IMG/VR virus record: IMGVR_UViG_3300010354_000065
Location: 1-64,000 of that record
Reading direction: 5' to 3' (one strand)
Origin: a virus
DNA length: 64,000 bases
The notes beneath the pieces were generated by a model. That model worked only from the letters and a program-made list of their open reading frames with translations. It did not search any database and was not told where the DNA came from. Shown here piece after piece: positions 52,540-64,000 of this stretch (positions are counted from its first letter, which is position 1; each line of letters starts with the position of its first letter). The translations under genes and the position numbers were made by a program.

Positions 52540-53143
52540 TATTTCCTGTGTAGCGTTCGAAAGTGGGTTTAGCTCCTTCTTTGTATGGAGCATAAAAAAC
52601 TCGCTGGCGAGTGTTTCTGTAGTAAACTTCATAATCTAATTCCCTAAAGTCATGGAGATGTTTCAAATCATTTTCACTTAAATTTCTGTACACATAAACA
52701 CGGTCAGATTTTTGGTTAAAAAGACTGAGTGTACGTTTTTCTTCGCTGTTGTATGCAACAGCCATTCCTTCAACCTTATCGCCAAGAAATTTTCTCAGAA
52801 AAGGAGCAATGACGACGGCAGCGATGGGTTCTATTTTCTTTGTATGCTTGATGTAGCGTGTACCAATAGCCCAGCCATTATATAGGGTCAGTCCAAACGA
52901 AGCTACAACAGCATCATCGCGCTCGACAATGAAGAATCCTAAATCAAACCGTTGTGCTCTGATTGTGCGTGTAAGAGCTTCTTCTGTGTAGTTTTTCTTT
53001 AGCCGCTCCCCTTCGTAGCTACTCCACAAATTCCATATACGATTTACGTTCTCTTTATCAAAGGTGGTAAGGATTGTGAATTTGTAAGACTGTCCTAGAG
53101 CTTCAAAATACTCAACCTTGTTTTTGGAAATATCGTTGGTCAT
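52517..53143 (-). CDS. Hypothetical protein (possible GNAT-like fold)
   Basis: 208-aa ORF coupled to its neighbours; no diagnostic motif. Confidence 0.45.
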   Translation of the reverse strand: MTNDISKNKVEYFEALGQSYKFTILTTFDKENVNRIWNLWSSYEGERLKKNYTEEALTRTIRAQRFDLGFFIVERDDAVVASFGLTLYNGWAIGTRYIKHTKKIEPIAAVVIAPFLRKFLGDKVEGMAVAYNSEEKRTLSLFNQKSDRVYVYRNLSENDLKHLHDFRELDYEVYYRNTRQRVFYAPYKEGAKPTFERYTGNNDRIQSS

Positions 53144-53759
53144 AATATCTGTCTAAATCCTCAGGGAGAAGGTTCAAGTTTTGATAGATCAGTTGATGTC
53201 CAAGATTATCATACTGTTCTAATCCCGTCCAAGGTGCGCCTACTGCGACTGTATACTTCTCTTCGCTTGTAAAATTATGCATACCATGTGGCCAACTACC
53301 GTCCATTATGAATGGATCTTCAGTATCAAACAAACGGACGTGTCCGTATTTCAAAACGAAGTATAAACTGTCTGTTTTGCCTTGTAGCACAACGCGGAAT
53401 TTGTGTTGTCTTGTACCAAATGCTTGTGGTGAACAGTCAATATGTTCATGATTACGTTGACCTGGTTGTGTCTTCAAAATGCTTATCCGCGTCTTCATCC
53501 CCATCCACGGAAAGACGTGTGTTTCAAACCATTCAACAAGAGTAGGAGAAGCAAAAGGCGTCCAAACATATTCTTCTTTTGTTCGAAAGTTAGACGCCCC
53601 CTGTTCCCCTGTCTTACCGCCCATTGTCATGAGTGGCATCATGTTTGTATGTCTGTAGGCATCATAAAACCATGCCTTCTCATTGACAGCCTTTACCTCT
53701 GCAAGTGCTTTTTGTTTGTCAAGAGCAGGAAATTTCAACGAAGCCGCAAGAATATTCAT
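53112..53759 (-). CDS. 2OG-Fe(II) oxygenase / Asp-Asn beta-hydroxylase-like protein
   Basis: TQPG...HEHID, HKFR and DGSWPHGM.N motifs. Confidence 0.7.
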   Translation of the reverse strand: MNILAASLKFPALDKQKALAEVKAVNEKAWFYDAYRHTNMMPLMTMGGKTGEQGASNFRTKEEYVWTPFASPTLVEWFETHVFPWMGMKTRISILKTQPGQRNHEHIDCSPQAFGTRQHKFRVVLQGKTDSLYFVLKYGHVRLFDTEDPFIMDGSWPHGMHNFTSEEKYTVAVGAPWTGLEQYDNLGHQLIYQNLNLLPEDLDRYYDQRYFQKQG

Positions 53760-54226
53760 GCTGCCAGTACCTCTTTCAAACGATCAGCCGCATACGAAGC
53801 AGCAAATGCGTTTGGTTTTACCATAGGAACAATATTACACGTTCCTTTAATGTAACCAATAGCTTGCTGCACAACGCAGCTAGAACCGTACCGTTCATCG
53901 GGGTTAATGTCCAAATGTACCTCAACATGACGGTCCTCTAACACATCAATTAAGCTCTGAAATAACTCAGATACTTTGTACACTTCATTCATTAAACGGA
54001 CTGCGGGTTTGTTCTTTTTTTGATCATAATCTGGCTCTCTTTGAACTTCACCGAATATTTTACAACCATGCCGACCATCCACGTGCACAACAACTGCAAG
54101 TGTATAATCTGCATACCAATTACGACCTTCTTTGAAGCGAACAGAATCTGCCCCAATGTAAATCTTTGTAGATGGTGATTGTTTTCTAATGAATTCTTTT
54201 ACTTCTTCAATGTTCATTTTTTGCAT
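53756..54226 (-). CDS. RNase H-like YkuK (DUF458) family protein
   Basis: IYIGADS, RLMNEV, VHLDIN and KP.AFAASYAAD motifs. Confidence 0.85.
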   Translation of the reverse strand: MQKMNIEEVKEFIRKQSPSTKIYIGADSVRFKEGRNWYADYTLAVVVHVDGRHGCKIFGEVQREPDYDQKKNKPAVRLMNEVYKVSELFQSLIDVLEDRHVEVHLDINPDERYGSSCVVQQAIGYIKGTCNIVPMVKPNAFAASYAADRLKEVLAA

Positions 54227-54240
54227 AAAGCACCTCGCCG

Positions 54241-54314
54241 TGGAGCGGGTGAAGGGAATCGAACCCTCGTCGTAAGCTTGGAAGGCTTCTGCTCTACCAT
54301 TGAGCTACACCCGC
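54241..54314 (-). tRNA. tRNA-Gly(UCC)
   Basis: Cloverleaf, loop CTTCCAA, U73, encoded CCA. Confidence 0.95.
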
Positions 54315-54484
54315 TTATTAATTATAACCCAAAATAATATTATCCCCAATATCAGTATCCTCATCAACAAAACAATCTTCTGTTGAAAGTATATCACAGT
54401 ATTCGTTTTTTCCAATCCCCGTATTATCTTCAACTTCTTTTTTTTGTTTTATTGTTTTGGCAGCTGTAAAGCTTTGATTGAATT

Positions 54485-55069
54485 TCACATGATTCCTTTT
54501 TGTTTGCTTATTGAAGAAAAATAATCTTCAAAAGAAAGATTTTCTTGAAATCTCAGTGATGCTATTGTTCTTTCTTTTGGTCCTGTTGACGCACGATGAA
54601 AGGAATCAACTTTAACAAAGTGTGGACGCTCAAAACAAAGACGATCAACAATAAAAGGACCTTTAACCCATTCAGGATGTGTATGACCATATCCAGGGTC
54701 GGGACGTTTTATTTCAATAACTTCCCCCTCAGCCCACTCCATAAAACAATCAACACAACCTTCAATGGGTATATTATACGCTGTGCTTTTTCCAAAAACC
54801 CTCCCATCTTTCATACTATATAAATCTTTATGCCAGTTTTGTGTGAAAAAAGGAGGTCTTGTAAAAAGATGTAACGCAAACAATTGAGGAAGTTTGTAAT
54901 ATGACAGCTCATTATTAATTGTGGCACATACATCTGATGGTAAGTCTGAAGCAAATAATACGTTGGCTTGACGTTGTGGTGTTGGTGCAGCCTTTATTGA
55001 TTCAAGCTTTTTTTTACAAAAAGCCTGCACAGCAGGAACAAATTCAAAATTAAACGAAAAATAATACAT
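54485..55069 (-). CDS. 2OG-Fe(II)/cupin oxygenase-like protein
   Basis: WHKD, YNIPI, FHRA and R.IASLRF motifs. Confidence 0.65.
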   Translation of the reverse strand: MYYFSFNFEFVPAVQAFCKKKLESIKAAPTPQRQANVLFASDLPSDVCATINNELSYYKLPQLFALHLFTRPPFFTQNWHKDLYSMKDGRVFGKSTAYNIPIEGCVDCFMEWAEGEVIEIKRPDPGYGHTHPEWVKGPFIVDRLCFERPHFVKVDSFHRASTGPKERTIASLRFQENLSFEDYFSSISKQKGIM

Positions 55070-55215
55070 TTATTTTTGTAGTCTGGAAAGAACAAAATCA
55101 AACTTTTCTAACGATTTCAAAGCCAGTTGTTTTATTCTAGATTCAAAATTAAAATTGAAAGGAATACTATTTAACATTTGGAAGCATGAAGTATGTTAGG
55201 TTACTGTTATATATC

Positions 55216-55290
55216 TGGCCCGGCCGGAGGGAATCGAACCCCCATTCGCGCTTTAGAAGAACGCTGTCCTATCCATTGAACGACGGCCAG
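55216..55290 (-). tRNA. tRNA-Arg(UCU)
   Basis: Cloverleaf, loop CTTCTAA, CCA. Confidence 0.93.
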
Positions 55291-55294
55291 AAAA

Positions 55295-55385
55295 TGGTGC
55301 CCGGAGCCGGGATCGAACCGGCACGCCGCTTTCGCTAAACGAGAGATTTTAAGTCTCTTGTGTCTACCTATTTCACCACCCGGGC
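55295..55385 (-). tRNA. tRNA-Leu(UAA)
   Basis: Long variable arm, loop CTTAAAA, A73, CCA. Confidence 0.95.
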
Positions 55386-55390
55386 TATAC

Positions 55391-55481
55391 TGGTACCTCT
55401 GGCGAGATTCGAACTCACATCAGCCGCTTATCTGGCGCTACGGGGTATAAATCCGCTGTTTTACCATTAAACTACAGAGGT
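55391..55481 (-). tRNA. tRNA with UAU anticodon (Ile by anticodon) and a long variable arm
   Basis: 7-bp acceptor ACCTCTG/CAGAGGT, loop TTTATAC, about 20-nt extra arm, TTCGAAT T-loop, CCA. Confidence 0.85.
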
Positions 55482-56008
55482 TTTGAAACATCAAACACTA
55501 ATGTTATTCTATCTTCGTTATTTAAATTTTGTGTACCGTGCATTTTTTGCGTGTTAAAACAAAATAACGTTCCTGGTGTAATATCGCGACTACTATCCCC
55601 TACAAAATATCGATATCTTCCTTTTATACACAAATGATACCGCTCTATTGTATGAAAATATTTTCCAGGATCTTTATGTAACGGAACCTTTTGTAATGGT
55701 TGCAGTTTAAGAAAAAAAGATCTTTGCAGGTTTACTGTGTTTTGATGTAACCAATCTAATGTTGAGGGAAATAATCCTTGAGAAAGATCTTCAACTTCTG
55801 TACTATTAAAAAAATTATCCGCTGACCTATTGGTGGTGTCAACATCACCAGGCCCAAAAAGTCTTAAGGTTTCTGTTTTTCGAAAAGCGTACAACAAATC
55901 CCCATAGTGTCTCCACAAATGAGAAGCTCGAGGGTGGACTACTTCATTTAAAATACATGATACATCGATGTTGGTTTTTTTTATTTCTATTTCAAAAGAG
56001 GGGTCCAT
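55472..56008 (-). CDS. Aspartyl/asparaginyl beta-hydroxylase-like oxygenase
   Basis: LHKDPG.YF, RYHL, PG.LF.FN..KMH and RITLVFD motifs. Confidence 0.8.
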   Translation of the reverse strand: MDPSFEIEIKKTNIDVSCILNEVVHPRASHLWRHYGDLLYAFRKTETLRLFGPGDVDTTNRSADNFFNSTEVEDLSQGLFPSTLDWLHQNTVNLQRSFFLKLQPLQKVPLHKDPGKYFHTIERYHLCIKGRYRYFVGDSSRDITPGTLFCFNTQKMHGTQNLNNEDRITLVFDVSKPL

Positions 56009-56835
56009 GTGTCTATAACTTCCTTCTTTAATTTTTGGTTGCCAGTTGCATTACACGTGTCGCACGGGACGCCACCCTTTGTTCTATTATGAAACATTAG
56101 CTTTTTACGAATACTATTCATCTCTTCAGAAAGCCACAGCTTGTGAAAAGGTGTCGTGTTTACATTACCAAACTTTCCTGCTGCCCTTGCCCAATCATTA
56201 CAACATAACAGTAAACTACCGTCCCAGTCAACGAAAGCTTTTGTATGGGGGAGAAAGCACGGCTTATTTAAAACGTCTTGAGGAATCCCATCTGTTTTAA
56301 CCGTACCAGCTCTATTTGTAAAAATTTGTATTGGAAAAGTGTACTTGGCGGAAAGGTGAATTGGTATACGATCCACAAAAGGCGCGACTTTACGCTTCCA
56401 TTGTTTGTATTGCTCTTCACTATCATACACATCTACAAAGATACTAGTTACTCCTGCATCGATGAAATCCTCAATGGTGTACCAATCATCATCAAGAATC
56501 TTATCTCCATTGGTATAAATTTGTATATCGCGGATTTTACCTTTTGCGACTTTTATATGCTCAAGAATATTTTTGTTGAGTGTTGGTTCTCCCATACCAG
56601 AAAAAACTATTCTACCTTTGTAGTTATTTTTGTACAAATCCTCTACAAGAGCAGTAATAGTATCCAGAGACATATGTAAGTTTTGATTAGGATAAATTTC
56701 TGGATCAACACGTGGACAAAACGCACAAGTTCTATTGCATAGCTCTGTTGGATTTACTTCAACCACGGTCAGACCAATAAGAGGATCTGTTGGTTCAAAG
56801 TGTTCGAGGGTACGTATTTTATGCATTTCTTTCAT
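55987..56835 (-). CDS. Radical SAM protein with SPASM/twitch domain
   Basis: CNRTCAFC (CxxxCxxC), SGMGEP, TNG and C-terminal PC...CCND...PCDTC. Confidence 0.92.
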   Translation of the reverse strand: MKEMHKIRTLEHFEPTDPLIGLTVVEVNPTELCNRTCAFCPRVDPEIYPNQNLHMSLDTITALVEDLYKNNYKGRIVFSGMGEPTLNKNILEHIKVAKGKIRDIQIYTNGDKILDDDWYTIEDFIDAGVTSIFVDVYDSEEQYKQWKRKVAPFVDRIPIHLSAKYTFPIQIFTNRAGTVKTDGIPQDVLNKPCFLPHTKAFVDWDGSLLLCCNDWARAAGKFGNVNTTPFHKLWLSEEMNSIRKKLMFHNRTKGGVPCDTCNATGNQKLKKEVIDTWTPLLK

Positions 56836-56850
56836 ATGTTCACTCTTTTA

Positions 56851-56942
56851 TGGCAGTGAGAGTGGGATTCGAACCCACGGTCCCGATTTCTCGAGACGAC
56901 GGTTTAGCAAACCGTTGATTTAAGCCACTCATCCATCTCACT
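56851..56942 (-). tRNA. tRNA-Ser(GCU)
   Basis: Long variable arm, loop TTGCTAA, G73, CCA. Confidence 0.95.
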
Positions 56943-56949
56943 TTTTATT

Positions 56950-57039
56950 TGGTGGAAGCGGTGAGATTCGAACTCACGGACCCTTTCGGATCGTCTGTTT
57001 TCAAGACAGGTGCAATAAACCGGACTCTGCCACACTTCC
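56950..57039 (-). tRNA. tRNA-Ser(UGA)
   Basis: Long variable arm, loop CTTGAAA, CCA (discriminator A). Confidence 0.93.
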
Positions 57040-57046
57040 ATTTTTT

Positions 57047-57121
57047 TGGCATCCCGCGAGGGATTCGAACCCCCACCCACGGTTTTGGAGACCGTCATGC
57101 TGCCGTTAACACCAGCGAGAT
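57047..57121 (-). tRNA. tRNA-Trp(CCA)
   Basis: Loop CTCCAAA, G73, CCA. Confidence 0.93.
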
Positions 57122-57133
57122 GTGTTGTATGTA

Positions 57134-57208
57134 TGGTGCATCGTGAGAGGATTGAACTCCCGACCTTCGCCTTGTAAGGGCGCAGCTCTACCGCTGAGCT
57201 AACGATGC
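57134..57208 (-). tRNA. tRNA-Val(UAC)
   Basis: Loop CTTACAA, A73, CCA. Confidence 0.95.
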
Positions 57209-57224
57209 ATATATATTTTCATTT

Positions 57225-57776
57225 ATGAAACACGAATATTCTGAAGTTATTGATTTTCAATACGATCGCAATCTTCTTTACAAGACTGTAAAAGAGATAG
57301 TCGAAGAAAACAACCTTTTTAACAAGGCTGTTCCAATTTCTGCATTTAAAAATTTACAGAAGATTAAAATATTATCAGCTCTTAATCTTAAATTCAGAGA
57401 TACCCTTTTTGACATATACATGAATAGTGTAACTGTTGCCTGTTTACAACCCAAACAAAGATCCGCTATACACGTTGATAGAGATGTTGACAACACATTT
57501 ACAACGAAGGCATTGAATGTACCTGTTACAGAATGTAGCAATGTTGTAATGAACTGGTATAAGGTAAAACCAGGTGGTGTTATCAAAACTATTAGGTCTG
57601 CTCGTGGGTGGGAAATACCTGGTCTTTCTTTAGATCAGAGCGTAATAATACACTCACAAACAGCTAACAAACCTTTTTTGGTGAATCCTTCTACATTTCA
57701 CGACATAATTAATAATGGAGACAAACCAGAATTAATTATTAGTATTCGAACAGGAAACGAAAATTGGAGCGGGTAG
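57225..57776 (+). CDS. 2OG-Fe(II)/cupin oxygenase-like protein, antisense within the tRNA array
   Basis: IHVD, LNVPV, MNWY and FHDI.N motifs; paralogue-like to 54485..55069 and 60894..61517. Confidence 0.65.
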   Translation: MKHEYSEVIDFQYDRNLLYKTVKEIVEENNLFNKAVPISAFKNLQKIKILSALNLKFRDTLFDIYMNSVTVACLQPKQRSAIHVDRDVDNTFTTKALNVPVTECSNVVMNWYKVKPGGVIKTIRSARGWEIPGLSLDQSVIIHSQTANKPFLVNPSTFHDIINNGDKPELIISIRTGNENWSG

Positions 57777-57842
57777 TGGGATTCGAACCCATCACTTCGA
57801 GTTTGGAAGACTAGCGTGCTAACCGTTAAACACTATACCCGC
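57765..57842 (-). tRNA. tRNA-Gly(UCC), second divergent copy
   Basis: GCGGGTA acceptor, loop CTTCCAA, U73, CCA. Confidence 0.9.
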
Positions 57843-57845
57843 AGA

Positions 57846-57919
57846 TGGTAGGGGCACCGAGAATCGAACTCGGGTTTGCTGGTTAAAAGCCAGCTACTTT
57901 ACCACTAAGTTATGCCCCC
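57846..57919 (-). tRNA. tRNA-Lys(UUU)
   Basis: Loop CTTTTAA, CCA. Confidence 0.93.
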
Positions 57920-57924
57920 GAAAA

Positions 57925-57998
57925 TGGTACCGGATACTGGTAACGATCCAGTGTCGCACGATTATCAGTCGTGTGCTCTACCTTTGAGCTAATCCGGT
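57925..57998 (-). tRNA. tRNA-Ile(GAU)
   Basis: Loop CTGATAA, atypical T-loop ATCGTTA, CCA. Confidence 0.9.
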
Positions 57999-58000
57999 AT

Positions 58001-58074
58001 TGGCAGAGGGTATTGGAATCGAACCAATAATAACGGAATCAAAATCCGTGGTTATACCATTTAACTAACCCCCA
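58001..58074 (-). tRNA. tRNA-Gln(UUG)
   Basis: Loop TTTTGAT, G73, CCA. Confidence 0.92.
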
Positions 58075-58083
58075 ACAAAACTA

Positions 58084-58159
58084 TGGTACCGCCTTCTGGG
58101 ATCGAACCAGATTCCACGGTTCTTCAGACCGTTGCTATGACCACATCAGCTAAAGCGGC
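58084..58159 (-). tRNA. tRNA-Phe(GAA)
   Basis: Loop CTGAAGA, CCA. Confidence 0.92.
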
Positions 58160-58169
58160 TTATGATAAT

Positions 58170-58245
58170 TGGGCAGGAGAACGGGAGTTGAACCCTGTCT
58201 TACTGTTTCACAGACAGTCGTGCGCACCGGTACACTATTCCCTGC
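58170..58245 (-). tRNA. tRNA-His(GUG), irregular acceptor and T stems
   Basis: Loop CTGTGAA, G-1:C73 pair, CCA; bulged stems. Confidence 0.8.
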
Positions 58246-58251
58246 ACTGTA

Positions 58252-58327
58252 TGGAACCACCTGAGAGAGTCGAACTCCCGCCTCTTCGTTCGTAGCGAAG
58301 TGTTCTGATCCATTGAACTAAGGTGGT
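58252..58327 (-). tRNA. tRNA-Arg(ACG)
   Basis: Loop CTACGAA, CCA. Confidence 0.93.
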
Positions 58328-58331
58328 GGAT

Positions 58332-58408
58332 TGGTGCCCAAGGAGGGATTCGAACCCACACTGTATGGCTTCTAAGACCATTGCCTCTACCAATTGCGCT
58401 ACTTGGGC
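58332..58408 (-). tRNA. tRNA-Leu(UAG) with a short variable loop
   Basis: Loop CTTAGAA, 5-nt variable loop, A73, CCA. Confidence 0.9.
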
Positions 58409-58423
58409 TTGCTATATACTTTT

Positions 58424-58957
58424 ATGCACAATCGCCAAACTTTTATACACACACAACGACTTGAGCAAGCAACCGCGAATATTAAAGATGACTTCTTTAG
58501 AATATACGGCGGTGTTGATAAGCTCAAAATTATAAAGTCACCCAAGCAAGACAAAGGAGTCTCCGCTGAGTGGGTTGGATCATTTGCATACTTTCAAAAA
58601 CGTAATCCTCAATGGGACCCTCTTTGTCAGTTTCGCTCACGTTTTCTCAAACCTTTTGTTGAGTCTTTTCCTCAAAACCACCTATTTGGTATATGGTTCA
58701 GTGCTATATTACCAGGTGGAGTTATACAGTGGCACACTGACAAATATGACGAGGGGGAAGACTATATCAGAGTACACTTGCCTCTCATTGTACCACAAGG
58801 CGACATAGGTATCACTGTAGAAGAGACAACATATAAATGGGACGAAGGTAAAGTGTTTTGTTTTGATCCTTTTGTAATGCATACCGCATGGAATAAAACA
58901 AACAACCTTCGTCTAAACTTAAATTTTAATTTTTCCAAAAAAGCTTTTATTTGTTGA
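58424..58957 (+). CDS. Aspartyl/asparaginyl beta-hydroxylase-like oxygenase, antisense within the tRNA array
   Basis: FS.ILPGG.I.WHTD, RVHLPLIVP, WDEG..F.FD..HTAWN and R motifs; start moved to the ATG at 58424 to avoid the tRNA-Leu overlap. Confidence 0.85.
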   Translation: MHNRQTFIHTQRLEQATANIKDDFFRIYGGVDKLKIIKSPKQDKGVSAEWVGSFAYFQKRNPQWDPLCQFRSRFLKPFVESFPQNHLFGIWFSAILPGGVIQWHTDKYDEGEDYIRVHLPLIVPQGDIGITVEETTYKWDEGKVFCFDPFVMHTAWNKTNNLRLNLNFNFSKKAFIC

Positions 58958-59125
58958 AAGCACTCCAGTCTGTTTAAGGATCCGGTGATCCCCTCTTATC
59001 TTTGCTATACGCTCAAAAGCCCTAGTGCCACCACAGCACATCGAGGGACTCGATAGAGGTCGGTATTACCTTTGGAGTCAGGCAGCTGGTTAGGCTTTTT
59101 GCTCACAGGCTTTCAACAAATAAAA
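58945..59125 (-). ncRNA. Unknown structured RNA closed by a perfect 17-bp stem
   Basis: 58945-58961 and 59109-59125 are perfect inverted repeats; begins just after the CCA of tRNA-Ile2. Confidence 0.55.
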
Positions 59126-59127
59126 CA

Positions 59128-59205
<78 letters not shown>

Positions 59206-59212
59206 AATAGGA

Positions 59213-59409
59213 TTTGCAAGTAGTGCCACCACGTTATTGGCACCATTCACCCGATTATACTAGTCCGGACGGGAGTCGGTAAGTCACTTGAAATACTCAA
59301 CACAGTGTCCCTTATTTTTTGCTAGGGATTCGCGCCCCCCACTGCTTTACTCTATTTGGCTCTTCGAAGTAACCTTATAGAGTGTCTTTCTCCTGCTGAC
59401 ACTTGCAAA
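59213..59409 (-). ncRNA. Unknown structured RNA between tRNA-Asn and tRNA-Ile2
   Basis: About 200-nt non-coding spacer closed by the 9-bp inverted repeat TTTGCAAGT/ACTTGCAAA. Confidence 0.5.
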
Positions 59410-59412
59410 ACT

Positions 59413-59489
59413 TGGCTGGCCTGGTAGGGATCGAACCCACGACATCTTGATTAACAGTCAAGCGCAACTACCAACTGTGCTACAGGCCA
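59413..59489 (-). tRNA. tRNA-Asn(GUU)
   Basis: Loop CTGTTAA, U1-A72, G73, CCA. Confidence 0.95.
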
Positions 59490-59500
59490 ATATTCAACAT

Positions 59501-59574
59501 TGGTGCCCCCACCATGAATCGAACAAGGAATTGATGCTTACAAGGCAACTGTTATACCATTTAACTATAGGGGC
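59501..59574 (-). tRNA. tRNA-Thr(UGU)
   Basis: Loop CTTGTAA, CCA. Confidence 0.92.
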
Positions 59575-59592
59575 AAATCTTTTCTACTTATT

Positions 59593-59668
59593 TGGTCTCC
59601 GACACTGGACTCGAACCAGCACCTTCTGCACCCCAAATGCAGTGGACTACCTATTATCCCAATCGGAG
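59593..59668 (-). tRNA. tRNA-Pro(UGG)
   Basis: Loop TTTGGGG, C1-G72, A73, CCA. Confidence 0.93.
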
Positions 59669-59672
59669 GTAT

Positions 59673-59746
59673 TGGTAGCAGGTCGGGGTAACGCTCCCCG
59701 CTCGGATGGGCTTATGAGACCCACCGGATCACTTGATCTACCTGCA
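59673..59746 (-). tRNA. Initiator-like tRNA-Met(CAU), atypical
   Basis: U1xU72 mismatch, GGG/CCC in the anticodon stem, loop CTCATAA, short D-arm, T-loop AGCGTTA, CCA. Confidence 0.8.
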
Positions 59747-59753
59747 ATTGTTT

Positions 59754-59828
59754 TGGTGGACCGCTGGAGAATCGAACTCCAACCTCCGCCGTGCAAAGGC
59801 GGCGTGCTCCCATTATCACTAGCAGCCC
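59754..59828 (-). tRNA. tRNA-Ala(UGC)
   Basis: G3.U70, loop TTTGCAC, CCA. Confidence 0.95.
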
Positions 59829-59831
59829 TTT

Positions 59832-59906
59832 TGGCGGTTTCAAGGGGTAACGATCCCCTTCTTCATGCGTGACAGGCATGCGTGCGTCCATGAACACTTT
59901 GAAACC
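59832..59906 (-). tRNA. tRNA-Asp(GUC)
   Basis: Loop CTGTCAC, G73, atypical T-loop ATCGTTA, CCA. Confidence 0.9.
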
Positions 59907-59982
59907 TTATAGAAGCACATTACTGTTAACCTTGCCTCAACTCTTGTGTTAAGGATCCAAAGGATAATGTGCTTTTATAAGG
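59905..59982 (-). ncRNA. Long hairpin (17/18 bp) abutting the 5' end of tRNA-Asp; processing stem or small RNA
   Basis: 59905-59922 pairs with 59965-59982. Confidence 0.5.
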
Positions 59983-60159
59983 TGTAGGCTACGTTTCCAC
60001 ATCGCCCCTACTTGAGTTGACACCCTGTCGTCACCTTTGCTTCTTCGGCTGTGTGAATCATCCTAGCAGTTCCTAAGTTGTTTAGACTTGCTAACGGTGT
60101 ACTGCCACCGGGAATCTACGTTTATCCATCGCCTCTGTCACGCCGAGGAAGCGGGATTA
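59983..60159 (-). ncRNA. Unknown structured RNA with a duplicated GGCGATG-N3-AAACGTAG motif
   Basis: Non-coding spacer between tRNA-Tyr and the Asp hairpin; 18-nt motif at 60116-60133 and 59989-60006. Confidence 0.5.
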
Positions 60160-60252
60160 TGGTGGAGGTCCACGGATTCGAACCGCGAATGTTTACCACG
60201 AGGGACCGGATTTACAGTCCAGTGCAGCACACGCCATAGCTGCAAGACCTCC
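60160..60252 (-). tRNA. tRNA-Tyr(GUA)
   Basis: Long variable region, loop CTGTAAA, A73, CCA. Confidence 0.92.
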
Positions 60253-60259
60253 TAAAAAC

Positions 60260-60337
60260 TGGAGTACCGGGTCAGATTCGAACTGACGGTTGTAGAGTTT
60301 TGCAGACTCTTGCATTGGGCCACTCTGCCACCGATAC
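60260..60337 (-). tRNA. tRNA-Cys(GCA)
   Basis: Loop CTGCAAA, U73, CCA. Confidence 0.94.
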
Positions 60338-60340
60338 ATT

Positions 60341-60495
60341 TACCATTTGTTTAATGCTATCGCGCCAATTTGTCAACAAAGTAGCTAACTCTGACAAGCG
60401 AATAGCGGTTGTATCAGGACCTGTTCCTCGCACAGTTAGGCCCGCATAGTCTATGCGTCCATAGACGATACCCTGATAGCATTAAACAAATGGTA
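60341..60495 (-). ncRNA. Unknown structured RNA closed by a perfect 21-bp stem
   Basis: 60341-60361 and 60475-60495 are perfect inverted repeats; internal hairpins GTCTAT/ATAGAC and CTGT/ACAG. Confidence 0.6.
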
Positions 60496-60566
60496 CACCT
60501 AGGGAGAATCGAACTCCTCGTTTCCGCCTTGAAAGGGCAGCGTCCTAGCCGTTAGACGATAGGTGC
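60491..60566 (-). tRNA. tRNA-Glu(UUC), first gene of the array
   Basis: Loop CTTTCAA, CCA. Confidence 0.95.
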
Positions 60567-60584
60567 ACGTAACCATCTACAAAT

Positions 60585-60596
60585 TGTAAAAGAGCA
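60585..60596 (-). promoter_or_regulatory. boxA-like antitermination site TGCTCTTTTACA
   Basis: 11/12 match to rrn boxA TGCTCTTTAACA, located between the promoter and the first tRNA. Confidence 0.7.
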
Positions 60597-60630
60597 AAGT
60601 AGTCAATGTTGTTAACTACTCAATATGAAC

Positions 60631-60659
60631 ATTATATGACAAAACAAACATCTTGTCAA
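60631..60659 (-). promoter_or_regulatory. Perfect sigma70 promoter TTGACA-17-TATAAT driving the tRNA array
   Basis: -35 at 60659-60654, -10 at 60636-60631, 17-nt spacer. Confidence 0.92.
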
Positions 60660-60689
60660 CAGTCCATTTTTGGTTAAATAACCACAAAC

Positions 60690-60723
60690 AAAAAACCCCG
60701 GTTTCTTTCGATTCCGGGGTTCC
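60690..60723 (-). terminator. Intrinsic terminator (attenuator 3:4 hairpin)
   Basis: GGAACCCCGG-AATCGAAAGAAA-CCGGGGTTTTTT, followed by GTTTGT. Confidence 0.85.
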
Positions 60724-60750
60724 TGGTTTGTAGATACTTGTGCTACAGCT

Positions 60751-60858
60751 TCAGGTTCCCCTCACTCCAATCCATGTATTATAGGCGCATGGGCGAGCGA
60801 CGGTCAACAGACCGGGCTGCTTGCGCTCAATAAACGATGATATGTGAAGGTGAACCAT
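60751..60858 (-). CDS. 35-aa leader peptide MVHLHISSFIERKQPGLLTVARPCAYNTWIGVRGT
   Basis: GAGG SD 6 nt before the ATG; TGA embedded in the antiterminator arm; 30 distinct codons. Confidence 0.7.
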   Translation of the reverse strand: MVHLHISSFIERKQPGLLTVARPCAYNTWIGVRGT

Positions 60859-60893
60859 TTTTTTCCTCATAGTACTACTATATATGTCTTCTT

Positions 60894-61517
60894 TTAGTCG
60901 ACAATACAATCCTCAAAAATTTTTTTTGCCTTGTCCCACTGTAGCCTTTGTTTGGTTTCTAAGTCACCGAGCACCACGCACGCAACGTATCTCGGATACT
61001 TACTGTTATGGACAGCATGAATCCTACCAACGTTAACAAGGCTTGGTGTACCAATAGATGCTGAGTAGGCGTGAATAAGATCTTCTCGTGGTGCGTAAGA
61101 ATATTGTGTGTTAATAACTGTTGTGTTTGTTTTAAGAGTGGCACCTGGCCGTAGCTCGTACCAATCCATTGTGCTATTTTCACCACCTCTCATCCAGTTG
61201 AGTTTTACAACATCGTTAATTTCCGGACTATCTGAATGAGGCTCTAAAGTCCGGCCTGGTGGAGTGTAGAAGTACTCACCAGCAATAACAAACAAGCTTC
61301 TTAGACTCAACCATCCTTTAAATTCATCATCCATATCTGCTTTGTGAAAGCGAGTATGGTAGTGCAGCTGCGTATTGGGAACCGGATATTCAGGAAATGT
61401 AAATGATACCGGTATTTTCAGATGATGGTGATACTTGTTTATAAAAGAGGCCATTTGACTATTGAACGATGAAGGTCGATCAAGAACACGAGACGTCGGT
61501 ACGATGAGTTGTTCCAC
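60894..61517 (-). CDS. 2OG-Fe(II)/cupin oxygenase-like protein (start probably MASF at 61454)
   Basis: FYTPPG..LEPHSD, KLNW, MDWY and LVNVG.IHAV.N..R motifs. Confidence 0.7.
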   Translation of the reverse strand: MEQLIVPTSRVLDRPSSFNSQMASFINKYHHHLKIPVSFTFPEYPVPNTQLHYHTRFHKADMDDEFKGWLSLRSLFVIAGEYFYTPPGRTLEPHSDSPEINDVVKLNWMRGGENSTMDWYELRPGATLKTNTTVINTQYSYAPREDLIHAYSASIGTPSLVNVGRIHAVHNSKYPRYVACVVLGDLETKQRLQWDKAKKIFEDCIVD

Positions 61518-62107
61518 GCACTATGTTCACATTGATTGTCAAAAGCAAACACGTTGTCCCAATGAATAAAGATTGTCCGCTCAATTTCAAATGTGATATC
61601 CCCTTCAGGTACTATTAGAGGGATATGACATCTCACGTACTGTTTACGTCGATTTTCAATTCCAGTATGACGACCTATACGACTATGAGCTTCCATAATG
61701 CTATATGTCGCGATCGGACAAGCAATCTGTCCACCTTCAACTCCATCTGGATAAAGATTGTCAAAATGATCAACAAGCTTCCAGGCAGCAGGATATTTGT
61801 CTCGGTTCGTAGCCGATTTGGTATTAACACCAGGATCCGTATACCGTAACCCCTCAACTTTCCATGCATCACCTGCAGCTGCATTACCAGCTGTCTTCCA
61901 CTGACCAACGGTTTTCATTTTATATTTTGGATCAAGCTCGCGTTCTTCAGGTGTTGGTTGTTTGTCACTAAAATTAGGAAAAATTTTCAAAAAATCCGCC
62001 GTCATTCCTTCACGAAAAGTATTGAAAAAATCAGTGAATATGAATTCGTCTGCTAGTTGATACTTCATGTCGATCTCTCGCTTGTCTATAAAATATATGA
62101 TTACCAA
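61439..62107 (-). CDS. Aspartyl/asparaginyl beta-hydroxylase-like protein (start probably MKYQ at 62068)
   Basis: YS...HS.I.RHTG.EN, RCHIPLIVP, FDNQ.EHSAWN and RLVFLID motifs. Confidence 0.8.
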   Translation of the reverse strand: MVIIYFIDKREIDMKYQLADEFIFTDFFNTFREGMTADFLKIFPNFSDKQPTPEERELDPKYKMKTVGQWKTAGNAAAGDAWKVEGLRYTDPGVNTKSATNRDKYPAAWKLVDHFDNLYPDGVEGGQIACPIATYSIMEAHSRIGRHTGIENRRKQYVRCHIPLIVPEGDITFEIERTIFIHWDNVFAFDNQCEHSAWNNSSYRRLVFLIDLHRSIVKWPLL

Positions 62108-62585
62108 TTTGTGTAGTTCTATACAGCCGCCACTTTGGATTTATAGCCACACTGTGAAAGTATGTAGCTCCTTTTGTAACATCATCAATTAGCTCATGGT
62201 AAAGTAAGACTAAAATAGAGAAGTCCACAATATCATGATACAACTGCGTGTGTTTGATAGCGTTCCGTCGCTTCGTAATAGAAGGATCACACAACCAGCT
62301 GAATTGGCATACGCCGTTTTGCTTTTGATGAACAACATTACATATTGTACTTGGGAATTTGTACGACAAGACCCTGTTGATAGTCACAAAAGCAACTGCT
62401 AACTTACCATTTACTGACTCAGAAGCCGCCTCGAAGTAAATATTTTCAGCAAGACACGTTACTTGTCGTTGTGATTCTTTACTTAACTCATGAAAACTCG
62501 GTGAGAGTGGCAAGTTTGAAGGAATTGCCGCGGCTGCTGAGAGTATAAATGTTGAAAGCAGAAATCCTGTCAGGATAGCTCTCAT
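62031..62585 (-). CDS. SleB/Hydrolase_2 family cell-wall hydrolase with a signal peptide
   Basis: CLAENIYFEA, VA.VT.NRV, C.VV.Q, CQFSW, GATYFH and IGNHIFY motifs; hydrophobic N-terminus. Confidence 0.92.
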   Translation of the reverse strand: MRAILTGFLLSTFILSAAAAIPSNLPLSPSFHELSKESQRQVTCLAENIYFEAASESVNGKLAVAFVTINRVLSYKFPSTICNVVHQKQNGVCQFSWLCDPSITKRRNAIKHTQLYHDIVDFSILVLLYHELIDDVTKGATYFHSVAINPKWRLYRTTQIGNHIFYRQARDRHEVSTSRRIHIH

Positions 62586-62604
62586 TTATCTCTCCTTTTA
62601 AAGA

Positions 62605-62901
62605 GGTGGGTTATTCTGTTACGAGGAAACCCACCGAAACCCTAAGCCGTGTTTAGGCGGCTAATGCGAAACGTTCATCGTTTGCGTTTACTTAATTTAC
62701 TTTTAACGACTCTCTGTGTCGGATCGTCCATATTTCTACTCTTTGCCCTGTCGAAACCAGGTCAGGCCCATCAAAAGCATACACAATTCCTCACCTTGTA
62801 GGAGTCTCATATTTCAGAGCCGATCCCTGTATGCTTTTGGTGGACCTGGGCGGAATCGAACCGCCGTCCAGAACACCTTTCGATCTACTTCATACGATCG
62901 T
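62605..62901 (-). ncRNA. ssrA: Circularly permuted (two-piece) tmRNA; acceptor piece about 62901-62838, coding piece 62769 to about 62605
   Basis: The T-arm and CAGGTCCACCA precede GGGCCTGACCTGGTTTCGAC; 7-bp acceptor stem with G3.U70; tag ANDERFALAA* at 62685-62653. Confidence 0.93.
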
Positions 62902-62905
62902 AAAA

Positions 62906-63280
62906 CTACTTATCTACCTTCTGATGATACGGCACAGTCATTTTTCTTTCTGTGCTTGTCTTCATATGGCTATGTGCCTTCGCACTATTCCGGATTATAT
63001 CATAAGATACGTGATGAGTAAACCCATCTTTGTCTTCATGAGAAGACGCTGCCTGTACAGTATGTGTTTTATAATTGCCATACGACTTTGTATGAATCCG
63101 GTAATGTAGATTACCACTACCTCCATGCGCAAGGTCATGGTTTGTAATAATGCCATGCTCTTTACTCTGCTTGATGTGTTTCACAGCTGTCTTTGGAATA
63201 TGCTTTGCAAGCTCATGACCAGACATCCACTCGGATGTAGTCTTGTTTTCTTCCGTAATAAACTCTGTAAAAGTTAACAT
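62906..63280 (-). CDS. His-rich protein with an MLTFTEFITEE N-terminus; candidate internal head protein
   Basis: N-terminus resembles T4 internal-protein capsid targeting/gp21 cleavage sequences; AATAAATA upstream. Confidence 0.55.
   Translation of the reverse strand: MLTFTEFITEENKTTSEWMSGHELAKHIPKTAVKHIKQSKEHGIITNHDLAHGGSGNLHYRIHTKSYGNYKTHTVQAASSHEDKDGFTHHVSYDIIRNSAKAHSHMKTSTERKMTVPYHQKVDK
62907..62914 (-). promoter_or_regulatory. Late-promoter-like GATAAGTA immediately upstream of the tmRNA acceptor piece
   Basis: Two mismatches to TATAAATA; would place the start at about 62901, where pairing with the coding piece begins. Confidence 0.4.
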
Positions 63281-63300
63281 GCAGCGTCCTTTGTTTGTAA

Positions 63301-63308
63301 TATTTATT
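63301..63308 (-). promoter_or_regulatory. Late promoter variant AATAAATA
   Basis: 21 nt upstream of the ORF start at 63280. Confidence 0.6.
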
Positions 63309-63999
63309 TAACAAAGAATTTTTGCACAATCCATCCACAAAAATCCCATTCACCGGGTTTGTTTGCATACGCAAAATTATACTCATACGGACGAGCGTGG
63401 TGATTATTATGTAGACCTTCACCTAAAGTCAACGCATTCCAAAGTTTATTGTTGATACTGTCATCTTTGGTATCAAAATTCTTGTATCCCCACATATGAC
63501 CTAAGCTAAGTTGCGTTCCTGCAACAAATTGAACATACCCACATGGAATGACGTAGCAGAACAAAAACAAGTAAGGGTCAATAATAAGCAAGAGCACACA
63601 ATACAATGCAATAGTTGGCCAATACCAATTATGAAAAAACGTGACCGGCTTTTTGGCAAGAAGATCACGAATATGTTTGGTCTGTATTGCCTTTGTTTTT
63701 TCTTGATCAACAAAACTAAAAAACGATCGCCAAAAACCTAGCTGCTTAGGACAGTGTGGATCAAGATCGGTATCGCTGTGAGCGTGGTGATAGCGATGGA
63801 GAGCAGAATAGTGTATCGCTGTATGTGTTGTTCCCAACGTAGCAAGCAGCGCCATCAACCACTCACGTTTCGATCCAGTCTGAAAACTACGATGACTGAA
63901 GTACCGATGTTGTCCAATTGAGTGTCCTACCTTAGAAATCAGCAACACTGCCACTACGGTTACGAGCACGTACCAAAAACTTACATTAACTGCAAGCAT
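63304..63999 (-). CDS. Membrane fatty-acid desaturase (delta-9 type); N-terminus may extend beyond the window
   Basis: Three His boxes: HRYFSH, HRYHH and GEGLHNNHH; hydrophobic segments. Confidence 0.92.
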   Translation of the reverse strand: MLAVNVSFWYVLVTVVAVLLISKVGHSIGQHRYFSHRSFQTGSKREWLMALLATLGTTHTAIHYSALHRYHHAHSDTDLDPHCPKQLGFWRSFFSFVDQEKTKAIQTKHIRDLLAKKPVTFFHNWYWPTIALYCVLLLIIDPYLFLFCYVIPCGYVQFVAGTQLSLGHMWGYKNFDTKDDSINNKLWNALTLGEGLHNNHHARPYEYNFAYANKPGEWDFCGWIVQKFFVK

Positions 64000-64000
64000 A

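Follow-up and report, generated by a model that had tools for sequence, protein, structure and literature searches.

Leader-peptide attenuators of amino-acid operons are described for trpL, hisL, leuL and pheL and, in multivalent form, for thrL and ilvL (PMC1183508 and textbooks). The leader element described here lies at positions 60690-60870 of a 64,000-nucleotide (nt) stretch of DNA (hereafter the window), the first 64 kb of the 74.8-kb IMG/VR record IMGVR_UViG_3300010354_000065, whose source is an uncultured T4-like lake phage. All window features named below are on the minus strand. As in the known attenuators, a short open reading frame (ORF) stands 5' of an intrinsic terminator, the 3' end of the ORF and its stop codon fall in a strand able to pair with the 5' arm of the terminator, arrival of a ribosome at the stop would promote the terminator and its delay the antiterminator, and the sequence of the peptide itself appears unimportant. 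Unlike the known attenuators, the element belongs to a phage and contains no run of regulatory codons, its peptides holding 19-20 kinds of amino acid, each present about one to three times (up to five). Furthermore, the downstream genes encode tRNAs and not biosynthetic enzymes, a strong promoter separates them from the terminator, and no sequence or Rfam relationship was found. The logic is that of a leader-peptide attenuator, but two defining features fail: the codon run and the absence of a promoter downstream of the terminator.

T-box riboswitches are likewise termination switches that report the charging status of tRNA; unlike the phage element, each T-box directly recognises a single uncharged tRNA species, works without translation and regulates synthetase or amino-acid genes. 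In pyrBI attenuation, ribosome-polymerase coupling decides termination, and a ribosome close behind the polymerase prevents the terminator hairpin, so that transcription continues. The signal at the phage locus would, as in pyrBI, be the distance from the leading ribosome to the polymerase and not a specific codon, but a close ribosome would here mask the antiterminator and cause termination. Among published cases, the stress-induced tRNA array of Anabaena comes nearest. The trn operon of Anabaena sp. PCC 7120 is a long chromosomal or plasmid-borne array of extra tRNA genes (PMC8421152; PMC10272220) that is reported to be controlled by a protein repressor, TrcR (PMC10272220). It resembles the phage locus in being a long array of extra tRNA genes and is switched on when translation is impaired; PMC8421152 mentions no leader, attenuator or terminator. 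In Sinorhizobium, the small RNA rnTrpL and the peptide peTrpL derive from an attenuator (PMC6614838; PMC7968998), and the terminated leader transcript of the phage might conceivably also be a stable functional RNA. Our literature search found no paper on leader-peptide control of tRNA genes or on a leader that samples all amino acids.

We favour, at slightly less than an even chance, the reading that the element is a ribosome-mediated attenuator sampling overall decoding capacity. A little less probable is the more specific proposal that the pangram leader serves as a gauge of ribosome speed, with which any single aminoacyl-tRNA shortage would open transcription into the replacement tRNA set. 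The cassette at the 5' end of the array would be self-contained, comprising a promoter, a translated ORF of 34-35 codons and a switchable intrinsic terminator. The sequence of the ORF would matter little; through its near-complete amino-acid set, the transit time of the ribosome would report the supply of all aminoacyl-tRNAs. The segment GGGGAACC before the stop codon would pair with the terminator 5' arm AGGAACCCC to give an antiterminator. A ribosome that paces the polymerase and stands at the last six codons or the stop would cover GGGGAACC, so that the terminator forms and transcription ends. With the ribosome absent, or delayed at any hungry codon, the antiterminator would form first and the polymerase would continue through a second promoter (P2) and a boxA-like motif into the tRNA genes, supplementing the output of P2. 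The family would thus follow a simpler rule than trp, in which termination requires a ribosome to have arrived at the end of the ORF by the moment the terminator is made. Possible triggers are tRNA cleavage by anticodon nucleases, loss of host tRNAs during infection, and starvation. Translation, the switch, its direction and its physiological trigger are what we infer here from the sequences. An attenuator was also the original prediction, made from the window alone; its conserved short ORF of high diversity found support, and its codon-count argument, its need for a helix between the ends of the ORF and its gating of the array did not.

Relatives were reached through 31 homologues of the flanking ORF and an alignment-based scan of metagenome and viral loci. 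A third clade was found with a pattern made from two invariant strands (of 69 loci that match the terminator-only pattern, nhmmer places only L101 and L102 in the family). With two called peptides, P0033 and P0036, added by a profile search of 1.84 billion proteins, the family has seven distinct members. Its DNA members occur on freshwater phage contigs and form clade 1 (window, L084, L085), clade 2 (L089, L090, L092) and clade 3 (L101, L102). Every DNA member shows the same order: a promoter-like block, the ORF, GGGGAACC with the stop codon, a small hairpin and the AGGAACCCCGG terminator, followed by a second sigma70 promoter, a boxA-like motif, tRNA-Glu and then tRNA-Cys or further tRNAs. 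In the window, the element is placed between a cupin-like ORF of 186 amino acids and tRNA-Glu(UUC) (60491-60566; ARAGORN), the first tRNA of the array, which is found wherever the cassette is found. Upstream of the cassette stands the cupin-like ORF in clades 1 and 2, an ORF of 238 amino acids in L101 and a transfer-messenger RNA (tmRNA) in L102; because these neighbours differ, the element is assigned to the start of the array rather than to the preceding gene.

Conservation is higher in the element than in its surroundings. A variant known from DNA shows 0 differences in 60690-60870 versus about 24 in 140 nt of the flanking gene, and L084 is 99.5% identical to the window over the element versus 82% in the flanking protein; the element of L085 is 86% identical. 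Relatives that lack the cassette have no terminator of any kind at the head of the array. Among GenBank phages, the DNA search matched tRNA-Glu only and the flanking protein had no match; among viral contigs, neither the flanking protein alone nor two exact patterns gave a match. Three pattern matches in genome contigs were dismissed as chance hits in unrelated bacterial DNA. As a separate observation, cassette and tRNA-Glu co-occur in the three clades and are absent together from L083:3618-3843, L086:3402-3455 and L082:3603-3671 (the same contig as L088). Presence of the cassette cuts across similarity of the flanking protein, which in L083, without cassette and tRNA-Glu, is 93% identical.

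The leader ORF of the window (60751-60858) starts with an ATG at 60858 and runs for 35 codons to a TGA at 60753-60751. A GAGG Shine-Dalgarno-like motif at 60865-60868 lies 6 nt 5' of the ATG; such motifs are seen before about half of the long ORFs of the phage. Its codons are of 30 kinds and encode 19 amino acids, with Asp missing, and in all these particulars the sequence agrees with the original description. Homologues have 34-35 codons. In a six-frame check, the leader frame is the only one without stops throughout the family; in the DNA members, start and stop codons occupy the same aligned positions, and the three indels within the aligned ORF are each 3 nt long (alignment A4). The stop codon lies directly 3' of GGGGAACC in all DNA members and one codon later in P0036. 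The peptide itself drifts, with 29-68% identity among members and a ratio of nonsynonymous to synonymous substitution rates (dN/dS) of 0.35-0.93. Judged by these values it is not conserved as a protein would be, and the drift would fit either a leader peptide or a non-coding RNA. The expectation that relatives would carry a short ORF that begins and ends at the same places, is very rich in kinds of amino acid and is poorly conserved as a peptide was borne out.

Amino-acid coverage is the feature that separates a leader peptide from a non-coding RNA. All 20 amino acids occur in the peptides of L085, L089 (identical to that of L092), L090 and L101 (identical to that of L102), and 19 in each of P0033 and P0036, both without Val. 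Most amino acids are present once or twice, up to five times, and no peptide has a run of one codon type. Draws from phage codon usage contain all 20 amino acids with a probability of 2e-4 and 19 or more with 0.004-0.005 (34-35 codons). The corresponding values are 1-3e-4 and 0.003-0.004 for sliding windows of real genes, 2-3e-4 and 0.003-0.005 for all stop-free six-frame windows, and 0.002-0.004 and 0.024-0.039 for mononucleotide shuffles of the ORF's own bases, of which only 15-23% are open. For the window ORF, the composition-matched probability of 19 or more is 0.024. A census of 6,876 ATG-initiated ORFs of 28-45 codons in 1.47 Mb of fetched DNA gave one non-family ORF of at most 35 codons with all 20 amino acids. 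This ORF, of 32 codons and seen in L073 and L076, was discarded as a chance case, an out-of-frame stretch of a protein gene.

Coverage is also kept while the sequence changes. With random bases placed at exactly the differing positions, the full set of 20 was retained in 0.5-1.2% of trials for the divergence of clades 1 and 2; for that of clades 2 and 3 the figure is 3-7%. Residues present once relocate instead of vanishing: the window has E-R-K versus K-H-E or K-L-E in all others, the single His and the single Asp stand at different positions in clade 2 and clade 3, and the single-copy Lys and Gln codons changed synonymously between these two clades. The sequence evidence that the leader frame is read and that the breadth of its amino acids is selected is good, not conclusive. 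The argument from 30 distinct codons among 35, which the original prediction had stressed, had to be given up. Its probability is 0.006 versus genome codon usage, but 0.05-0.12 in composition-matched shuffles (0.12 for the window), which is not significant, and amino-acid coverage is the stronger signal. The match of leader codons to the phage's own anticodons (0.74-0.91 versus 0.76 in ordinary phage genes) is uninformative.

The RNA of the element is structured. The whole element folds better than its shuffles (z = -5.3), and a rod-like fold spans the ORF (60754-60856), with z values for the ORF alone of -4.0 in the window, -1.4 in L085, -4.6 in L089, -4.2 in L090 and -3.5 in L101. Segments 1 (60856-60844) and 2 (60765-60754) of the window pair with each other, and this helix 1:2 belongs to the minimum-free-energy fold. 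The core of segment 2, GGGGAACC at 60754-60761, can pair with segment 1 or with AGGAACCCC; the pairing with the first codons is seen in clades 1 and 2, and clade 3 offers no 5' partner. A small hairpin, UGUAG-loop-CUACA (60729-60747), between the stop codon and the terminator forms the apical part of the 2:3 structure and is replaced in clade 3 by a different hairpin of four base pairs in the same location. The intrinsic terminator (60690-60725) consists of segment 3, CAGGAACCCCGG (60725-60714), a loop, CCGGGG (60701-60696) and a T-tract (60695-60690). The terminator proper (60723-60690), CCCCGG, a 12-nt loop, CCGGGG and T6 extended by A:U pairs, has the make-up of an intrinsic terminator; a simple scanner with a loop limit of 8 does not flag it. 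In the relatives the terminator reads AGGAACCCCGG...CCGGGGT6-7, with an invariant core and an extended lower stem that shows compensatory changes.

Pairing 2:3 can form between GGGG (60761-60758) and CCCC (60719-60716), together with CCUG/CAGG and UGUAG/CUACA. This GGGG and CCGGGG (60701-60696) compete for the same CCCC, which makes the two states mutually exclusive, and both fold (-49.4 kcal/mol for the 2:3 state versus -63.9 kcal/mol for the terminator state in the window). Helix 1:2, the alternative 2:3 and a terminator sharing the CCCC are all present as proposed. In the alignment of seven sequences, 13 of 55 consensus pairs are compensatory; they fall in the outer helix of the rod, in the apical hairpin and in the lower stem of the terminator. 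Covariation scores 0.218, compared with 0.113 in shuffles (none of 500 as high) and 0.035-0.095 with slid partners. We regard the covariation in rod and terminator as supportive, not strong, because the alignment used for the test also yielded the structure and because the clades number only three.

The nascent RNA was folded as far as the terminator loop, either free or under a 28-nt ribosome footprint. Without a ribosome, 2:3 has a probability of 0.93-1.0 in L085, L089 and L101 and of 0.1 in the window, where 1:2 wins. With the ribosomal A site at codons 2-28 the probability is about 0.6-1.0, for which the window needs its 5' part blocked at codons 18-27, and with the A site from codon 29-30 through the stop it is 0. 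The stop codons of the DNA members are so placed that a terminating ribosome would mask the antiterminator strand. A general requirement for helix 1:2, part of the original prediction, was not supported, since GGGGAACC lacks a 5' partner in clade 3 and 2:3 is the default without a ribosome in three of the four folded members.

Several observations weigh against the attenuator reading, beginning with P2. This promoter, TTGACA-17-TATAAT at 60631-60659 (12/12 matches), lies about 30 nt past the terminator; the original prediction had already noted it as a perfect sigma70 promoter. It is present in all clades, and in every member a perfect or near-perfect sigma70 promoter stands between terminator and tRNA-Glu. 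The terminator is not the sole transcriptional entry to the tRNA genes, as it would be in an attenuator. With P2 and the boxA-like motif ahead of the first tRNA, the array has no need of read-through, and the idea that the element gates the array was not supported. The position of P2, with the boxA-like motif, upstream of tRNA-Glu is the main reason why our confidence in an attenuator stays short of an even chance. Read-through could only add to the output of P2, an addition that might count, for example, when early sigma70 promoters are shut off or P2 is reduced by stress. Further promoter-like sites occur inside the array, and in the cassette-less L083, L086 and L082 a promoter at the end of the flanking ORF leads straight to tRNA-Cys. 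A weaker point comes from RNA contigs of two metatranscriptome studies, which cover tRNA-Glu and end at 60612 and 60616, i.e., 15-19 nt past the -10 box of P2 and a few nt beyond the expected start, whereas DNA contigs extend further. These ends are a weak hint that P2 is used in nature. The RNA contigs in public RNA runs cover tRNA-Glu and its leader only; none spans the element, which speaks neither for nor against the switch.

The remaining objections concern the ORF, the fold and the sample. The Shine-Dalgarno motif is good in the window and in L101 (AGGA), misplaced in L085 (spacing 12 nt), weak in clade 2 and missing in L102. Three of the seven distinct members have 19 amino acids, so coverage is not absolute, and the balanced base composition of a structured RNA lifts the chance level of full coverage about tenfold. 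At full length, the terminator state is favoured over the 2:3 state by 4-14 kcal/mol; therefore the switch would have to be kinetic, as in known attenuators. Since GGGGAACC and AGGAACCCCGG are invariant across the three clades, the 2:3 and main 3:4 strands allow no covariation test; the covariation expected by the original prediction was found in the ORF-spanning rod and the lower terminator stem and not in these strands, whose invariance fits a double pairing constraint. With three clades only, the family represents few independent events.

The main rival, which we consider unlikely, is a stand-alone small RNA gene, in which an upstream promoter (P_up) makes a structured RNA of about 170 nt, composed of rod, hairpin and terminator, and the open frame is incidental. 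Stable non-tRNA RNAs in the tRNA region of T4 may act as RNA and offer a parallel. P_up is sigma70-like (TTGTCG-16-TATAGT, 60877-60904, 9/12 matches), and its -10 box lies within a (C/G)ATATATA-N-T block conserved in all clades. Homologues in relatives read TTGTTT-17-TATAAT, TTGACA-17-TATACT and TTGTCA-17-TATACT, and where a -35 box was looked for (window, clades 2 and 3) it stands 16-17 nt 5' of the block. In cassette-less relatives the counterpart of P_up leads directly into the array. A promoter of its own, a strong terminator and then an independent tRNA promoter are what a small RNA gene would have, and the significant fold with compensatory changes and a nucleotide conservation above that of the synonymous sites of the neighbouring gene agree with it. 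The same holds for three properties of the frame: its G+C content at third codon positions (GC3) is 0.42-0.56 versus 0.30 in phage genes, its substitutions are flat over the three codon positions without a three-base periodicity, and its Shine-Dalgarno motif is variable. On the other hand, a small RNA leaves unexplained why one frame alone is open in all members with a fixed start and stop, why indels come in threes, and why every member keeps 19-20 amino acids despite relocating single-copy residues. In addition, no Rfam family, leaders and T-box included, was found at 60690-60870 in a cmscan search of 53000-64000 with E values up to 1, which returned tRNAs, the tmRNA and chance matches.

An ordinary small-protein gene, whose product is the peptide of 34-35 residues and whose terminator just ends the transcript, is improbable. 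The conserved ORF, start and stop would suit it, as would the 68% peptide identity and the dN/dS of 0.35-0.48 between clades 2 and 3, and gene callers predicted the peptide in three metagenome assemblies. However, clade 1 is only about 29-40% identical to the others, dN/dS within clades rises to 0.68 and 0.93, and changes are spread evenly over codon positions. The best-conserved residues coincide with RNA helices and the invariant switch strands, and the invariant complementarity between ORF end and terminator is left without explanation.

Still less probable is a leader that binds a ligand, a protein or a tRNA, similar to a riboswitch or T-box, in which the rod is the sensor, GGGGAACC switches between the rod base and the terminator arm, and translation is irrelevant. 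A closed structured domain, a shared strand and a terminator form the layout of many transcriptional riboswitches, and the shared strand is indeed invariant. The negative Rfam search counts against such a leader, and so do rod pairings that shift register between clades, with few conserved single-stranded positions and no pattern of a binding pocket. GGGGAACC also lies outside the rod in clade 3, and the properties of the ORF find no explanation. Finally, a plain terminator or 3' untranslated region of an upstream operon that shields P2 from incoming transcription, with the rest neutral, is very improbable: the terminator is strong and sits directly after a gene and directly before a promoter, but the cassette recurs behind three different neighbours, possesses a conserved promoter-like block of its own and about 110 nt of conserved, folded and open-framed sequence 5' of the terminator, and close relatives have no terminator there at all.

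The other transcription signals of the locus are as follows. The boxA-like motif TGCTCTTTTACAA in the P2 leader (60584-60596), about 20 nt before tRNA-Glu, is the single match in the window and is conserved in L085, L089, L090, L101 and L102 and also in the cassette-less L083 (L083:3665-3680). It resembles the rrn antitermination boxA and overlaps a small palindrome, TACAA-T-TTGTA. A near-consensus sigma70 promoter-like TTGACC-18-TATAAT lies inside the leader ORF (60807-60778) in the window and L085; clades 2 and 3 lack it. A short transcript of about 80 nt could arise from it, starting near segment 2; as a feature of the family it was rejected, being present in clade 1 only. The spacer of about 150 nt between tRNA-Glu and tRNA-Cys (60338-60490) is conserved in L083:3690-3842, although L083 has no tRNA-Glu, and contains inverted repeats and a promoter-like TTGACA-17-TAAACA. 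From such sites the array seems to have several internal promoters. The sequence CATATATANT was rejected as a general phage promoter motif, with two matches only, the chance level. The window has no second copy of the element and no further leader-terminator cassette within its array, and the G+C-rich non-tRNA stretches flanking tRNA-Met (58945-59411) contain no cassette of leader-like ORF and terminator.

The record has an estimated completeness of 44%, and many freshwater metagenomes carry DNA nearly identical to the window. T4-type tail proteins, including a gp6-like baseplate wedge protein, and a large terminase are encoded in it. The genome, described at the outset as AT-rich, is only moderately so (about 40% G+C, GC3 0.30). 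The array comprises 25 tRNA genes at 54241-60566 that cover all 20 amino acids (ARAGORN); the coverage originally reported is right and the count of 26 is not, the 26th ARAGORN gene being a permuted beta-type tmRNA at 62562-62930, upstream of the leader element. Its beta-type tag points to a betaproteobacterium of fresh water as the possible host. The tRNA-Glu genes of clades 2 and 3 (L089:932-1006, L092 around 1290-1370, L101:12752-12826) have an unusual D-arm region with TTCGACTTCAGGTGAGGTC, and the L092 copy was missed by ARAGORN despite its near-identity to that of L089.

The cupin-like flanking ORF (60894-61454), with its true start at MASFINKYHH, forms with the proteins P0001-P0031 a family of 180-190 amino acids with invariant H, D and H residues. 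The family had no match in Pfam or PHROG and may be a cupin or oxygenase-like enzyme. It adjoins a phage tRNA array in most fetched loci, usually immediately upstream. The permuted tmRNA and a following gene for a SleB-like cell-wall hydrolase (62031-62930 in the window) form a pair conserved in more than 70 viral contigs (loci L002-L081), and the tag peptides of these tmRNAs vary around ANDE(K/R)FALAA.

Why phages carry tRNA genes and how the expression of these genes is timed is an old question. Should the switch model prove wrong, an ORF that drifts yet retains 19-20 amino acids would still call for an explanation. If the attenuator reading is true, a virus would apply general, not amino-acid-specific, attenuation to tRNA genes, and attenuation would be extended from one or a few amino acids to all of them. 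The phage would measure the decoding capacity of its host with one small ORF and respond with its own tRNAs. This would amount to on-demand repair of the translation apparatus, relevant to defence systems that target tRNA.

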